Source: Sedimentisphaerales bacterium | GTDB lineage: Bacteria; Planctomycetota; Phycisphaerae; Sedimentisphaerales; SM23-30 | Direction of reading: 5' to 3' | DNA length: 64,000 bases | Assembly (NCBI GenBank): GCA_963663965.2 | Contig: CAXXFK010000041.1 | Coordinates: 32,001 to 96,000 of the forward strand | Shown: piece by piece, positions 18,741 through 26,257 of the stretch | Layout of the letters: each line of letters begins with the position of its first letter | How positions within the stretch are numbered: position 1 is the stretch's first letter | Position numbers and translations under genes: made by a program | Notes under the pieces: generated by a model | Databases searched by the model: none | Told to the model about the DNA's origin: nothing | Seen by the model: only the letters and a program-made list of their open reading frames with translations

Positions 18741-21700
18741 TCATCGCGCTAACCAGTATTCGGAAAGCTGAATAATCTCGGTTATATCCGCCCCATCCAG
18801 TATCAGCCATTGATTGGATATCGCTTCATAATCTTCCATGTTCACTCCATAACTACCCGTCGTATCGCCCGGTATATCCCGCTGCCACCAGAGCATGGGG
18901 TACCCGCTGGCCTGATAGGGCATGTGCCAGATGTTATCAAAATCCCATCCTGCCCCGGTAAAGGTGGCTTTAACCTGCATGGCCTCCGTTAACAGACCTG
19001 TCCCGGCTCCGCTATAGGTCATACCTGAAGATTGCATATCCCAAAAACAGGTTTCGCCTGACTCACTGATATTATAGGCGGCCAGTCCGCCCCCGACGCT
19101 GCCGGTAACACTGCCGGTTGAGTAACAGTTAATCATCTGACACCCATATTCATTCGATCCCACCAGCCCGCCCAGCAATTGCCGCCCGGAAATATCACCC
19201 TGGGCATAACAATCAACAATGCTGCTCAATCGATGGTTGGCACTATAGTAGGTATTATTCCCAACCAGACCGCCAATAAACCAGCAATCTCCCGAACAAC
19301 TTAGATCAACCGTACTGTATGATTCCTTAATGGTTCCCCCATAGTTGATCCCCACCAAGCCACCCAGATTATCACACATATCATTCGTTGAAATGGTCCC
19401 ATTCGAGCCGCATTGCGCAATCTGGCTATTGGTGTTACCGCCCACCAATCCGCCCACCCAATCCGCCTGCTTTGGACAGGTAATGGCTACCTGGACAGTA
19501 CAATCCGTAATCGTAGATGAAACAGTTTGACCCACCAGACCGCCGATATAATACGCATAATCCCCCGTATGAATACTGACATCAGCCCAACATTTCCTAA
19601 CATTTCCATAAACCTTATAGCTGGTGATTCCCCCAATATAATCATCCCCGGTAAGTGTTCCCTGAACCGTACAGTTTTCAATCGTGCCATAAACCATCCC
19701 GGCCAGACAACTGATATTATCATCCCCGGCCACTGAACAATCCACTAAGTTTAAATTCTTCACTATACCACCTGTGCCAACATAGCCAAACAACCCCAGA
19801 TAATCATTCCCTTCAGCCACTCCGTCAATCGTCAAGCCGATAATAGAATAGCCCTGTCCATCAAATGAACCAACAAAAGAATCACCTTGAAAACCGCCAG
19901 ATGGTGATGTATCTGGGGCAAAAATTGCGGTATTACTAGCATTTAGCGATAAGTTGATATCATTCATTAAAAGATAGTATTTATTATAATCTTCATTACG
20001 GTTGCCTGCATAGAGCAAATCATCGATCGAATAAATTCTAAAAGGATCTTCTTTAGTGCCGCTACCTTTTTTCAAGTCTTCAAAGAAGACAAGTTTGGGA
20101 TATTCTCCAGGCCTTATCATCCAATAGTCATCAGTTCCATTGATTGATTCTCCAATAAAATCCCAACCGGCGTTCAGGTAGGATTGAACATCCTGCATTT
20201 CGGCAGTGGTTTTACCAAATCCGCCGTCACTGGTGGTTGTGCTGGATGTTTCAATATCCCAAAAACAACCAGTGATAGCTATGCCGGAACTATAGCCACA
20301 AAGACCGCCTACTTTTTCGGAAAATTGTCCGACTGAAATCGGACTGGAAGCATAACAGTTTTTGATCGTTCCGTTATCTTTTTCTCCACAGAAACCGCCA
20401 ATATATTCTGACCAATCTCCACTAGTAACGGAAGCAAGAGAGTAAGAATTTTCAATGGTGCCTTTTGACCATCCGCAGAATCCGCCAATACCACAAGTAT
20501 GATATCGGCTCCATACTATACCAGTGGTATAACATTCTGATATGGTTCCCAAATAGTTCCAGCCGCAAAGCCCACCTATAAATTCATAGAGGGAATCGCC
20601 ACCCTCCTCATATTCCAGATCAATTACCGATACCTGAGCTGTGGCGTGACATCGAGAGATTACTGCGCTATTTTCTCCACATAGTCCGCCAACACTTGAT
20701 TTGCCCTTGATATCGCCAGAAGCGTCGGAATTTGTTATAATACCCTGTTTCATATTAGTACCGCAAAGTCCGCCTATGGCATAAATGCCCATAACAGTAC
20801 CATTCGCATAGCAGCCATTAATGACACCACGATTATCTCCGCATAATCCACCCAATGGGCCAGATTCATCATCACAATCGCTTATTACAGTGCTTATGGT
20901 ATCACAATCCCGGATAGTTCCATGGTTCTCTCCACATAGCCCCCCAATGTTTTGGGCTAAATTTCCTGTCTCGATTAAACAAGAAATATGACATTGTTCT
21001 ATGGTTCCATTATTAAAGCCACATAATCCGCCAACGCAATTCGATTCAGGCCCACCAATGATGGTGCAATCTTGGATTTTAATATTTACAATTTGAGCAG
21101 AAGAGCCAATATACCCGAACAAGCCAAGATAAGAAATACTGGAACCAGAAGTATTGATATGCAAGTTGCTTATGGTATGATCCGCGCCATCAAAAACACC
21201 ATTAAACATTAGTCCGTTAAACTGCCAATTGGAGTCCTGGATACTTGGTGCGATCGGGGAATTATTAATATCATGATAAGAAGAGAGGTCAATATCCGCC
21301 GTTATAATAAAATACTTATCATAATCCAAAGGGTTCTTACCTAATGCAATCAAATCGTTGGCAGTGGCAATCTGATAAGGATCGGTTTCAGTACCAGAAC
21401 CGCCAGAATATTTTATCGGTGGCGTATCAAATTTCACAATCCAGCCTTCAATAACACCATCGGGATTAAATCCATTTCCTGAAATCGTTGTGCCATCGTC
21501 TGAAATACAATTTGCCTCATATAGAGTCCATTCAGTTAAATCTAATCCATATTCAGTTTCAAGAATCGTTTTTAAATTCACCATCCCTGTCTTTTCTGTC
21601 CAAAGGAAAGCTTCATGTTCTTGGTGGTTAATATCGCCTGATACAGTACTATACCCGACGACAATAGAACCATCTCTTGAAACGTCTTGAGCCCAGCTAA

Positions 21701-22467
21701 AAAACTCACCACCCGGCAAATCACCCAGCCCCGTCATAGTACCATTTTCCCAAATAAAACGCTTCACCAGGCCCCGGCCATATCTCTGTTTTTTGACTGT
21801 AACCAACGACAACTTGTCCGTTAGCAGATATCGCATTGGCACGGCTTTTATTTCCACCCAAATGCCCTAATGGCTTAATACCTTCTGATTCTGTCCAACG
21901 AGACGCATAGTTATTACCTCCAAACATGGCATAGCCAACAATAACAGAGTTATTTTGAGAGATATCTGAGCAATGCCCGATTAATTCCCAGCCAGTTTCA
22001 GATTGCCAGAATCCTTTATCACTTAAAAGAATAGTACCATCAGCCGATATGCCTGTCACATAATATCCAGCGGAATCCAGCAGGCATGTTGCTTGACCAT
22101 TATTCCAGATAAAGGGTGTTGACCCGCTTGACGATGATACCGAATTCCCTGCTATAATGGCCCCATTAAAGTTACAGGTTTTGGCTTCTGAATGCTGGCG
22201 GTTACAAAAATAGCCTAATTCTTGTATCCCTTCATCAACAGACCAGATAACAGCATATCCAAATGATTGATTGCCTGGTACTTCATACGCTTGACCTACA
22301 ATAACATTACCATCACCGGAAATACCAAAGGCCTGGCTTTGCATGAAATCTGGAATTGCTCCTGGGATATTTCCCATTCTATAAAAACGAGCTTCACTCC
22401 AAAGGGAGGAACATAGAATCAGAGAAACGAAAAAAACAAACCGCATAACAACCGTATTCTTAACCAT
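18741..22467 (-). CDS. Large secreted HAF-repeat + GLUG-repeat surface protein with dockerin-like tail (one frameshift at ~21756-21759)
   Basis: Signal peptide; repeated 'A..IS.DG..VVG' propeller blades; two 'GSGT..DPY/F.I...DL' blocks with many 'GGLCG/GGLVG' repeats; removing one T from a T4 run joins 'GPGEAF' to 'IWENGTMTGLGDLPGG'. Confidence 0.8.
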
Positions 22468-23014
22468 ATCCAGCTCCTTTATGAGAAAATCGATAAACTT
22501 TCCAGCAATCTACCCAATTGCAATGATTGCATCTATTTCATCATACCCATTCCGGCCTATTAAATCAATCGTGGTAAATACGGTATATCTGCATTTTTTT
22601 AACCTCCTGTTCTGGGGGCAGATGAGATCGGTTCCCGTATGTCTAGTTTGATAAAATGGCGGTAAGACCTTTCTAATCTTAAGGTTAGGGCGATATTTTT
22701 TCGTATTGGCTTCGTTTGGTTTTGGGTTGGCAATCGCTGCGCTCATGGTTGGTTTCCTTTCTTTGCGAGAAATACTGTCAGTAGCGCCTTGGGGAGGCGG
22801 TGGTTAAAATGGAAGTAGGAAGTAGTATAATTTTCACGCCAATGAATTGGTGGGTTATTCACGGTTATCTCCTTCTGAGGCGGACCTTCGGCCTTTGGGG
22901 TATTATTGGTATCCGCCGGAGGGCGGATGGTCAGTTTTATCTATCGCTGCAGAGCGATATCCTGGCGGTTCGCCTCTGCGAGGCGTGGGTTAAAAAATTA
23001 ATTTCATGTTTGTG

Positions 23015-23087
23015 ACCCAGGGTGACGCTCGTCCCGAAGGATCGGGATTCGCTCTGCCCTGGGCTATTTTATACCAGCCCGTTGGGC
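23015..23087. repeat. REP-like palindromic element with nested hairpin
   Basis: CCCAGGG...CCCTGGG outer stem enclosing TCCCGAAGGATCGGGA, followed by GCCCGTTGGGC. Confidence 0.6.
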
Positions 23088-23240
23088 CGCTTTGGGTATC
23101 CGTCCTCCTGAGGCGGACCTGCGGCCTATGTCGGATGGTTTTTTAATTTTTCGTTAAGATCAATTCTTTGTTGAGGTTATGGCAATATTTATGGGTATTG
23201 GGTTTGTTTCGCACCGGGTCATGATGGTTGGTGGTTGATG

Positions 23241-24027
23241 TCAGTAGTGACGGCATTGGAGGGTGGTGTCGGTTGGGGTGTTCTGGGAATTTTCTGCCGG
23301 CGTGAATGGTTTTATGTCATTGTTATAATTTTGGTTATAGTCGTGATTATTGGTGTTGGGTTCGTTTGGCGCTGGGGGATAGTTGGAGTGGTTGGGGGCG
23401 TATTGATGGGGTGTTTGGTTCAAAGGATCGGGATGAGATTCGTAGCGTTCGTAGCTGGAAGTGTGGTGGTAGTTATGGGTTGGTTTGTTTGTTTCTAAGT
23501 TTTTGTTATTGTTTGTGTTATGGTTGAATTTGCCTTCTTTGGGTTCGTTTGGTATTGGTTGGGTTTCGGGTTGTTGGCCTGGTTCGGGGGTGGCGTTTGG
23601 GTCGCACTGGATGGCGGGGGTGATCTGGTAGCCGGCTTCGAAGAGGATTTCTTTGGATTGCTGGATGATCTGCTGGTATTCCAGGTCGGTGGGCGGGCCA
23701 TCGGGGAGGCAATCTTTGAAGGAGTTGGAAACGGTGATGAACTGACGGATGAGTTGGGCAGTAGCGCGGCGGGCGGTGACGTTGTTGTCGGAGCGGGGAC
23801 TGGACGACGAGCCGTTGGAGGGCCTGGTGGCCGGCGCGGGTGGCGCGGAGTTTGTAGTCGCGGCGATCATAGGCGATCAGGCCGGCCAGTTCGCAGTGGT
23901 AGGAGTGGGTGTCGATGATATATTGATGCTGGCGGCGGGTGGTGTTGATGGTGGCGAGGAAGATGTCATCAATTTCGGGGCGGTGGTAGTATTGGGCACG
24001 GGCGAGAATTTGCATGGAACGATTCAT
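23241..24027 (-). CDS. Hypothetical protein with low-complexity Asn/Pro/His/Thr tail (one frameshift at ~23795-23798)
   Basis: AAGGAGG RBS and strong promoter upstream; removing one C from a C4 run gives ...LQRLVVQSRSDNNVTARRATAQLIR... with consistent C-ending codon usage. Confidence 0.6.
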
Positions 24028-24089
24028 GTTATACCTCCTTTTAACCTTAATAATGTTTTGTGTTTGACCGTTAGTGGCCGACTGTTGGG

Positions 24090-24118
24090 ATTATAGGTTG
24101 CATTTCAATAATAGTCAA
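24090..24118 (-). promoter_or_regulatory. Sigma70-type promoter for the 24027 gene
   Basis: TTGACT-17bp-TATAAT on the minus strand. Confidence 0.7.
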
Positions 24119-24164
24119 ATAAATAATAATATTAATTGCAATAAATACATAATATAAGAAAATT

Positions 24165-24812
24165 TCACCGTGAAGTAAGTGAAGGGAGTGAAGAAACAGC
24201 CGGAGAGATAAGAAATATATAACGGCCGATAAAACCGCAGATCCCGATGTACATCGGGACAGATAGACGCAGATAAAATAGATATAAGTTATTAAAATAA
24301 AAGAAGATATGGCTACGGAATCCGCGGAATACATGGAAGGGAATCAGGATGAAGTAGTTAAAATCAAAGAAGATAGAACTGCGAAAGGCACGAAAATAAA
24401 GAGTGGCGGGGCCACGAGTTAAAATATCTAAAGGCAGGGATTAACCACGAAGCCGTCCTCCTGAGGCGGATCTTCGACCTTCGGCTACACGAAGGGCGCC
24501 TACGGCGCTACACGAAGGATAAGAAAAAATATAACAGCCGGTTTATCCGGAGATAGACTTAGATAAAACAGATTTAAGTTATTTAAATAAAAGATGATAT
24601 GACCACTGAATACACGGAACACACGGAAGAAATCAGGGTTAAGAAGTTAAAATCAAAGAAGATAGAACTGCGAATGGCACGAAAATAAAGGGTGGCTGCG
24701 CCACGAGTTGAATTTTTGAAGGAGGGGGTTTATCGCAGAGTTTAGGAGGGCAAAGAGGGTAATGGCCGGGAGGGGGATGGACGGGTACGGACTTTCACTG
24801 ACTGGCACGGAC
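24165..24812 (+). repeat. Non-coding purine-rich array of ~9-nt-period triplet motifs, containing a ~160-200 bp direct repeat (24261-24420 and 24551-24709)
   Basis: GTGAAG x3, (C)AGAT x3, GGAA x3, CGAA x2 and CACGAAG x3, then the AGAT/GGAA/CGAA set again; the two cores align nearly without gaps. Confidence 0.8.
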
Positions 24813-24979
24813 GGGGATATGGTGGGGGGAGGATGGGGCTTTTTGATGGGATAATTTTGGTTGATCGGGATTTTCTGGATGTTGACAGGATCAAGAAATT
24901 GGGGGGAATGAGTTCTGGTTTGAAATTCTGGTTGGGAGGTGATGTGTTCAATTATTTTTTGATTCTGTCATTCGCATGA

Positions 24980-25008
24980 TTGTCAGGTGGGGATGGGTGT
25001 GTTAGAAT
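24980..25008 (+). promoter_or_regulatory. Sigma70-type promoter upstream of the HEPN cassette
   Basis: TTGTCA-17bp-TAGAAT with TG immediately upstream of the -10. Confidence 0.55.
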
Positions 25009-25211
25009 TGCGGGATACCGGAATATGGATTGAATTGGTCTTGTTTTAAGGAGTATTGATGAAGGATGAGTTATTGGAGCGATCTGTACACAAAGATATA
25101 ATTAAAGACAGAACCAGATTGACTATTATTACGATAAAAAATTAACTTATCGTGCCTGTCGAAAACCATCGTACTGATAAATTGGATGGCGAATCACTTA
25201 ATTAGAACAAC

Positions 25212-25909
25212 ATGAATCAAGAAGCAACACATAATATTGAATTAAATTTTTATTATTTACATTCGAATGACGCAGAAATGTTTCTTCAGTGGGCTAAACA
25301 GGAAGAAAAAATAAAATCGAAATTGAAGAGTATTCATGCTCGCCATGCAATTTTGGCAGCAATATTTGCAAGCGAATCTTTGATTAATCTTGTACTGGCT
25401 GATTTTTATATTCCAAGATCTGGTAGTGAAAGTATTGATAGGATGAGTTTGCATGATAAGTGGTTTGTTGCCCCACTCATATGCACAAATAATCAATCCA
25501 TGAAAACTTTTGATAAAGCTGAAGAGCCATTTCAAAGCTTTAATGATTAATAAAAATTCGTAATTGGCTTGTTCATCCAAAACCAGATTTGATTATTGAA
25601 GGCAGATTAGTAAATGGCCAAATAACCAACATTGAAACTGAAAAATCTTATCCTTGGCTAGAAACAATAAAAGGTGGCAATTGGTTACAAACAAAAATTC
25701 CCAAAAATCCATTTGAAATTACCTCTACTCATGCAGAAAAAGTTATAAATATAATTAAAGATATGGAGCTAAAATTAAAAGAATTCATGCCTTATCAAAT
25801 AACTGATGAATGGCTAAATCGAATAAAATTTAAGAATAAAAAAACTGGCAAAGTGGAGCATACCTCAACTGAAGCTCTTTGGGGTGGGTACACTCCAAAT
25901 GATGACTGA
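25212..25909 (+). CDS. HEPN-domain putative RNase (one frameshift at ~25547), AT-rich
   Basis: Adding one T at 25547-25548 gives ...SFNDLIKIRNWLVHPKPD..., restoring an R-N-x3-H HEPN motif and joining both ORFs; N-terminal helix 'AILAAIFASESLIN'. Confidence 0.65.
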
Positions 25910-25976
25910 TGATAAATTTTGAGAAGCTTTTATTTATAGAACAGCATAGAAAGCTATGCATGCCCCCTGATATTTC

Positions 25977-26051
25977 TGTTCGCCGGTTGTGTTCTTGGTA
26001 CAAGGTTTTGCAATGTAGATTAGAGAGTATTTAACGATTATAAAATGATAA
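25977..26051 (+). repeat. Degenerate copy of the 3' end of the 26258-26935 gene (matches 26864-26938)
   Basis: 75-nt ungapped alignment, 61/75 identical by my count, both ending AATGATAA. Confidence 0.85.
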
Positions 26052-26257
26052 TTTTTCTACGCAATTAAGGTCATTATTATAGAAGGAGAATAAATCGGAA
26101 CAGCTTTCATCTCTAATGAAGAAAACAGGGGATTCCGGTGATATGGATGAATCCAAGTGTTTCAGGTGTAACCTGAGTAAAGTGGGATGAGTTGATTTAA
26201 AGAAACGTATGGGCGGCGCTTGCCGTACTGGTTGAGATTAATATAAAAGGTGAAGTA

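Follow-up and report, generated by a model that had tools for sequence, protein, structure and literature searches.

We analysed a stretch of 64,000 nucleotides (the window) of a Sedimentisphaerales genome and found that each module of an intergenic array at 24165-24812 is a triple repeat of the kind that brackets genes for GxxExxY (PD-(D/E)xK) or four-helix-bundle-suffix proteins, the type of repeat following the nuclease subfamily. Stacks of such modules are dispersed through the genome, mosaic in composition, single-stranded in orientation and aligned with the local G-rich strand. The array is probably a gene-less, mixed-class stack of cassette end-repeats, decaying and reshuffled, which, like a hybrid BIME, is a by-product and at the same time a substrate for recombination.

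The lag-9 autocorrelation of 3-mers in 24165-24812 was 52, against 14.2 in dinucleotide shuffles (z = 7.9). The segment holds five triplet loci (shuffle mean 0.43), a number reached by none of 1,000 dinucleotide shuffles and matched by 2 of 2,249 sampled 648-nt windows of the same genome. A first-pass annotation, made from the letters of the DNA, had described periodic modules in a duplicated unit, all on one purine-rich strand, and had proposed shuffled sequence as a control. Every module that it named is present where it had put it, the shuffles did not reproduce the periodicity, the duplication is real (79 nt at 84% and 102 nt at 83% identity, spaced by 289-290 nt) and the + strand, which carries all modules, is 66% purine. 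A spacing of about 9 nt, as it gave for most modules, holds overall; AGAT and GGAC, however, repeat every 10 nt (a spacing that it had stated for the latter), and the cores of the CGAAG module, like those of the first AGAT module, are split by inserted palindromes, so that the CGAAG spacing is not 9 nt. Its view that cores are kept while the bases between them vary did not survive counting: between the two unit copies, 7 of 42 positions are changed in the cores and 23 of 139 outside them, 17% in both cases.

The module types bear labels coined in the present analysis. Their full order on the + strand is TGAAG, AGAT, GGAA, (GAAA), CGAAG, AGAT, GGAA, (GAAA), AGAG, GGAC and a remnant of GGAT at 24882. 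The TGAAG module (24166-24193; three cores, 9-nt period) is the arm type that goes with the QQCLCHE subclade of GxxExxY proteins. It is followed by an AGAT module (24233-24283, 10-nt period) interrupted by a palindrome at 24243-24259, which has the identical insertion point in 10 AGAT modules of the genome, and by the first copy of GGAA (24311-24338), the arm type of the FEVYRE-motif subclade. Next come a degenerate, two-core GAAA module (24377-24396) with a small hairpin behind it (24403-24415) and the CGAAG module (24443-24518), whose three cores are parted by small inserted palindromes, one of them at 24453-24469. The second unit copy comprises a degenerate AGAT module (24546-24573), GGAA (24602-24628) and a degenerate GAAA module (24666-24685), again followed by a small hairpin (24692-24704). 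A degenerate AGAG module (24733-24758) and the single-core GGAT remnant (24882-24891), both absent from the first-pass annotation, lie on either side of the GGAC module (24786-24812, 10-nt period), the arm type of some four-helix-bundle-suffix cassettes. Three linker boxes, AAC(A/G)GCC, start at 24195, 24221 and 24533 (spanning 24195-24539, + strand); boxes of the form AAC(A/G)GC(C/T) occur at 5.8 per kb in arrays versus 0.33 per kb genome-wide, an 18-fold enrichment.

Two sigma-70-like promoters, at 24118-24090 (- strand, 11/12 consensus, in a leader common to the 15 starts of a gene described below as ORF261) and at 24980-25008 (+ strand, 10/12, towards the downstream gene), do face outward as had been annotated, but the array region contains 9 consensus matches where 7.6 are expected. 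In three sequencing runs of one study, contig depth was raised over about 22900-24700, which fits a multicopy region; run X2 had no cover over 24716-26100, a gap that no contig bridges and that was hence not counted. Neither a GxxExxY nor a four-helix-bundle gene is found on the whole contig, extending what had been noted for the window.

That such motifs flank GxxExxY genes had been suggested, and is borne out by a sample composed of the best 110 of about 276 TIGR04256 matches (121 genomes) and five genes of the own genome (115 loci, 114 parsed genes). A module, with two mismatches at most, lay within about 230 nt of 83 of the 114 genes, versus none of 228 shuffled flanks. The layouts were inverted ends (37 genes), a module upstream only (27), none (20), direct repeats (15) and other arrangements (15). 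The catalytic D and ExK of the sampled proteins are more than 90% conserved; a PDB sequence search with one GxxExxY protein gave chance-like matches only. TIGR04256 scored over its cut-off in 93 of the 121 genomes of the order.

The type of the arm follows the protein. Placed on a quick maximum-likelihood tree (127 columns), the arm labels required 45 changes, versus 74.5 after shuffling, with none of 200 shuffles reaching the observed value. On the GPGLLE side of the root split the cores end in -AG for 28 of 29 labelled genes, and on the other side in -AT or -AA for 54 of 54; the lone exception, L114, carries a mixed stack in which AGAG is closest to the gene. Within these halves, TGAAG is linked with QQCLCHE, GGAT with GFGFLESVYEKCLL and GGAA with FEVYRE, the last through two genes of the own genome and one deltaproteobacterial gene (L197). 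The several specificities proposed earlier are thus reflected in the protein tree. Labels are, however, shared among kin, so the agreement between arm and tree demonstrates co-inheritance rather than binding; co-inheritance alone would be expected to make arm type follow the protein tree.

For four-helix-bundle genes the suggested flanking holds for a subset of the suffix-type loci. The GGAC module brackets such a gene at C27 in inverted orientation (C27:20719 + and 21296 -). Of 30 TIGR04258 loci fetched, 24 were parsed and 4 of these have the module; others carry different 9-nt triplets. At G000:C42:222229 a GxxExxY gene, and at C42:224580 a four-helix-bundle gene, each have inverted arms (those of the latter 7-nt); both cassettes are inserted among genes of what by eye is a dTDP-rhamnose operon. 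A search of the open literature found no description of flanking repeats for either family, and PMC3424549 lists the function of PDDEXK_3 (PF13366) as unknown.

In its own genome the array DNA had 73 matches, or 177 pieces in 79 clusters by another count. A strict scan found 263 triplet modules (its control gave 57 modules in 2 Mb of real DNA versus 10 in shuffled DNA), and a more sensitive pass sorted the modules into 38 arrays (3-13 modules each), 36 pairs and 98 singles, the last including some chance matches. The window array is one of these 38, not the orphan collection it had been taken for. None of the 38 has an opposite-strand module within 1.5 kb, and all 70 scored clusters of two or more modules are intergenic. 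The order of neighbours is shared yet shuffled: AGAT is followed by GGAA 27 times, TGAAG by AGAT 16, AAAG by GGAT 16 and GGAT by AGAT 13 times. The commonest types, GGAT (62), CGAAG (41) and AAAG (38), lack a cognate gene among the five GxxExxY genes found in this genome, which is 94.6% complete. No two segments of the window array share their nearest paralogue, and the two unit copies are 86% identical to each other versus 85-87% to copies elsewhere: dispersed blocks went into the assembly of this array. Among paralogues, GGAA cores are well kept (0.87-0.96 pairwise identity for the second core), while AGAG cores have eroded to 0.46-0.50.

The array neighbours scanned (126 proteins, chosen from 187) are products of housekeeping genes together with Abi_2, SIR2, DUF4145, Tox-REase-7, AHH/Imm11, Ntox46, Cas9, ResIII/restriction proteins and IS transposases. 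In two near-duplicate multi-kb blocks of the genome (L217, G000:C11:12000-25500; L233, G000:C30:151500-166000), arrays form direct repeats between orphan Rhs-like toxin cassettes (Tox-REase-7), a Y1_Tnp gene and an IS110 gene.

A search of 40 relatives with the window array DNA returned a single 49-nt match and nothing else. The generic triplet pattern is present in 118 of the 121 genomes of the order (control matches, 0-4 per genome); the relatives G004 and G019 carry multi-type arrays, co-oriented or tandemly amplified, and inverted module doublets also occur in relatives. At L313 (G019:C1:2440277-2443380) a unit of about 220 nt, containing TGAAG, a 7-nt repeat, AGAG and CGAAG/GAAA modules with an inverted arm, is tandemly amplified about eight times in two blocks. 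In a complete chromosome, L165:2001-2434 is CRISPR-like, a 95-nt tandem array in which AGAT and GGAA modules alternate. A pattern scan of viral contigs found three loci with modules in mixed orientation.

Among 185,579 species genomes, a scan for AGAT with GGAA behind it, an order fixed by the pattern and thus silent on hierarchy, gave 64 loci in 19 genomes of several phyla. At least 12 of the 64 form complete mirror nests (AGAT+ GGAA+ ... GGAA- AGAT-); a further locus is a tandem array with its modules in one orientation. Multi-type stacks, co-oriented or tandemly amplified, adjoin the gene at 4 of 110 sampled GxxExxY loci. In the own genome an opposite-strand partner lies within 700 nt of just 3 of the 263 strict modules, and degenerate inverted partners are visible at C36 and C30; from this we infer that mirror halves have been lost in this lineage. 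Direct repeats of 79-155 nt, each with a module inside, enclose three of the five own-genome GxxExxY genes. One of the three has an empty-like paralogous site with the same flanks at C28:554118; a search for such sites yielded none for the other two. The earlier suggestion of empty landing sites gains some support from these three genes and the one such site.

With 15-kb flanks, all 36 pairs, 37 of the 38 arrays and 81 of the 98 singles have their purine-rich face on the local G-rich strand; with 60-kb flanks the figure for arrays falls to 30/38. With a gene-balanced third-position skew, 36/37 and 32/33 were leading, versus 577 of 983 sampled genes (59%), and clusters with an opposed downstream gene were still leading in 9 of 9 cases (the orientation of the upstream gene is unreliable where the gene caller missed ORF261). 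Merged into independent regions, 46 of 48 region-strand calls fell on the G-rich strand, a bias stronger than passive pile-up would predict. Array orientation flips with the skew in four contigs (C18, C20, C25 and C33), and none of 17 skew switch points coincides with an array. The bias was not reproduced in G078 (29/55, with 100 of 107 matches listed) and G019 (6/24) on coarse skew maps; G004 gave 9/14 by such a map and 24/30 by 3-kb local skew. Other small repeats of the own genome share the bias. The leading strand is itself inferred from skew in a draft genome of 42 contigs.

Head-to-head with the array lies a frameshifted copy (23241-24027, - strand, break near 23795) of an orphan gene for a protein of 261 residues, ORF261, which has 15 copies in the genome, 4 of them frameshifted or cut short. 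Its N-terminus is under purifying selection (dN/dS 0.17 over codons 1-80 in 11 copies). Fourteen of the 15 copies lie on the C-rich strand, among unrelated genes. In 11 of the 15 an array starts 138-154 nt from the start codon, and 13 leaders have a module upstream; conversely, ORF261 stands head-to-head with 10 of the 38 arrays. Two copies without an array (G000:C1:379271 and C30:124448) have instead an upstream 9-nt triplet of a type seen beside four-helix-bundle-suffix genes. Homology searches found no relatives outside the own genome, and Pfam, NCBIfam and PADLOC hold no family for it. AlphaFold gave a pLDDT of 43 for the single sequence and 65 for residues 1-135 with 10 paralogues. The ESM Atlas offered leads only (best 0.88; a winged-helix cluster at 0.83), and the guess by eye that ORF261 is a winged-helix protein is unsupported by Foldseek, which gave no match at E <= 0.001, and by VIA (best Z 6.1).

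Next to ORF261, at 22690-23240 (- strand), is a second repeat family with REP-like palindromes, which we label NEP units. Tandem NEP units of 240-300 nt also precede a gene for a protein of 279 residues (ORF279) with 26 copies, 97-100% identical over the first 150 residues and on the C-rich strand in 20 of 26 cases; the nearest copy, G000:C41:29511, is just left of the window, and another is at G000:C11:177618. ORF279 has no NCBIfam family and shows no link to arrays, a single copy of the 26 having one within about 1 kb; with its NEP units it is a candidate for an unrecognised mobile element. Small palindromes insert at fixed points in both modules and NEP units (24243-24259, 24453-24469, 23100-23116 and 23017-23062). 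One such family has 131 strand-matches (about 65 sites), and another 83, of which 72 are on the G-rich strand. The Y1_Tnp genes, with 11 matches in the genome, might be partners of the small palindromes.

Downstream of the array, at 25212-25909 (+ strand), is a gene of a family of about 231 residues, frameshifted near 25547, with a conserved RxxxxH that makes it HEPN-like by motif only. Its 16 relatives share 38-61% identity and a C-terminal LWGGY motif, and comparison with Pfam, NCBIfam and PADLOC gave no match of note. The first-pass annotation had imagined a dedicated system beside a HEPN cassette. This idea loses its footing, as the 38 arrays of this kind adjoin unrelated genes and their cores are decaying; the gene is a neighbour, and a candidate partner of the array at most. 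At 18741-22467 (- strand), a 248-residue reading frame and a GLUG-repeat-like one of 1,038 residues overlap in different frames, and contigs of two runs differ by one base at 21756; this is probably one secreted-protein gene split by a frameshift or an assembly error.

The formation of the stack may be pictured by analogy with RAYT and REP. Each nuclease would recognise its own three-site arm and spread it, as RAYT does REP. New cassettes or empty arm pairs would insert into older arms or next to them, which would produce the nested mirror stacks of other phyla. In this lineage genes and mirror halves would then have been lost, possibly because a long hairpin is not stable when the fork passes, and the remaining left halves, all in one orientation, would have been duplicated and rearranged by ectopic recombination, some of them carried along with the ORF261 block. 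The resulting stack would have no dedicated host function, and its modules could still serve as sites where cognate cassettes are gained or lost between direct repeats. The interrupted modules and the decaying cores weighed in favour of this by-product reading. Against it count the well-kept GGAA cores, the lack of cognate genes for the commonest module types and a strand bias that is too strict for passive pile-up and was not seen in G078 or G019.

The same layout might have been selected, with the array titrating cassette proteins as a decoy or steering insertions, including those of defence genes, to harmless intergenic spots. We consider this unlikely. Up to about eight module types per array, some without a cognate gene in the genome, the strict one-strand layout (0/38), the toxin, defence, restriction and IS genes among the neighbours and the genes located between direct repeats all speak for it; but the cores of the window copies are kept no better than the linkers, AGAG cores are badly eroded, modules are broken up by other repeats, array length varies (2-13) and module order is shuffled, many neighbours are housekeeping genes and the array DNA is not conserved in 40 relatives. 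The near-strict polarity, its independence of the downstream gene, its flips with the skew and the local-skew result in G004 would suit sites of a replication-polar protein (KOPS-, Ter- or Chi-like) or fork-coupled insertion on one template strand. A chromosome-organising site, however, is expected to be one motif rather than ten nuclease-linked ones; the bias weakens with 60-kb flanks, does not extend to G078 and G019, reaches 9/14 in G004 on the coarse map, is shared by other small repeats (72/83 for one palindrome) and is measured against a leading strand deduced from skew in a draft, so that we find this explanation improbable. We give a low but appreciable chance to a reading that joins these elements: the GxxExxY proteins would be an undescribed class of very small, site-specific nucleases that mobilise DNA in a fork-polarised manner, with a separate three-site address of 8-10 nt for every subfamily, and the mosaics would be maintained as multi-address landing pads or decoys for the gain and loss of cassettes and defence cargo.

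Less still favours the remaining possibilities. The distance of 138-154 nt between array and start codon in 11 of 15 ORF261 copies, the modules in 13 of 15 leaders and the unrelated flanking genes, which suggest dispersal as a block, could mean that the array is the upstream regulatory region or an end of an ORF261 mobile element; this is most improbable, given that 28 of 38 arrays lack ORF261, that these modules abound in genomes in which a search did not detect ORF261, that the supposed element has no defined distal end and that ORF261 has no recognisable transposase or DNA-binding fold. A repeat RNA transcribed from the purine-rich strand (a CsrB-like sponge or a guide array), which the first-pass annotation had also considered, is very unlikely. 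Arrays are polar, GGA occurs within the cores of GGAA, GGAT and GGAC, and the global fold of the window array scored z = -9.2 versus 20 shuffles; local folding against its own shuffles, though, gave z = -2.8, and -1.2 after removal of the inserted palindromes, with means over 20 arrays of -0.6 and +0.1, respectively. There is no conserved RNA structure in the arrays and no Rfam match at E <= 1, GGA is missing from most module types and the strong promoter on the left is directed outwards. That the array is a decayed coding repeat, is CRISPR-like or is an attC cluster of an integron can practically be dismissed. Periods of 9 nt are multiples of three, and AAC...GTT boxes resemble attC ends by eye, but each of the six frames contains 7-15 stops (longest open stretch, 91 codons) and some periods are 10 nt; there is no constant repeat with unique spacers of constant length, as the first-pass annotation had seen; no stable hairpins form on either strand; and no integron integrase (TIGR02249) match exceeded the cut-off. 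These three candidates were rejected, among them the decayed coding repeat that the first-pass annotation had named as a refuting outcome.

GxxExxY/PDDEXK_3 is a very widespread nuclease-fold family without known function. The table of subfamilies and motifs amounts to a predicted DNA substrate for each GxxExxY subfamily, testable with a few oligonucleotides, and if the multi-address landing-pad reading were true, the arrays would be a ready-made catalogue of the GxxExxY recognition code. If the proteins do spread their arms, they would be a second, unrelated solution to the REP-RAYT arrangement, and would explain an extensive class of repeats between genes. The strict strand bias offers a hint at the mechanism. 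The window array itself is probably a by-product, and the weight of the result lies in the subfamily-to-motif code and the polarity rather than in this locus.

MITEs, non-autonomous IS derivatives and multi-site transposon ends, such as those of Tn7 and Mu, provide a precedent for inverted ends made of three tandem protein sites, for empty derivatives and for nesting. The arrays here, in contrast, have no DDE transposase and keep one end type only; terminal inverted repeats, present in other genomes, are nearly absent here (3/263 partners within 700 nt). CRISPR arrays, attC clusters and CsrB are likewise polar, repeated and intergenic, but the constant repeat with unique spacers, the hairpins, the integrase and the Rfam match that would mark them are missing here. 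With the GxxExxY (TIGR04256/PF13366 PDDEXK_3) and four-helix-bundle-suffix (TIGR02436/TIGR04258) families the relation is direct, the modules being the flanks of such genes. The closest likeness is to REP-RAYT, in which, according to PMC2817692 and PMC3686654, a small gene is bracketed by inverted cognate repeats. As there, the repeat class co-varies with protein phylogeny (45 versus 74.5 changes here), and gene-less extragenic copies occur as doublets, singlets and mixed-class clusters (263 modules and 38 arrays here). The REP literature describes mixed-class clusters as hybrid BIMEs (PMC2817692), the persistence and decay of repeats after gene loss (PMC3686654) and, in P. fluorescens SBW25, co-oriented two-class arrays whose orientation on one side of the chromosome is the reverse of that on the other (PMC3116915). 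The unit here, however, is a non-palindromic direct triplet of 8-10 nt and not a hairpin-forming palindrome, the folding z being near 0 once inserted palindromes are removed. The flanked genes belong to PF13366/TIGR04256 and TIGR04258 rather than to the HUH Y1 transposases, a single array may combine as many as about eight classes, which belong to two gene families without relation to each other, and the alternating orientation of BIMEs does not occur in the own genome (0/38). The array thus works like REP-RAYT but is no member of it.
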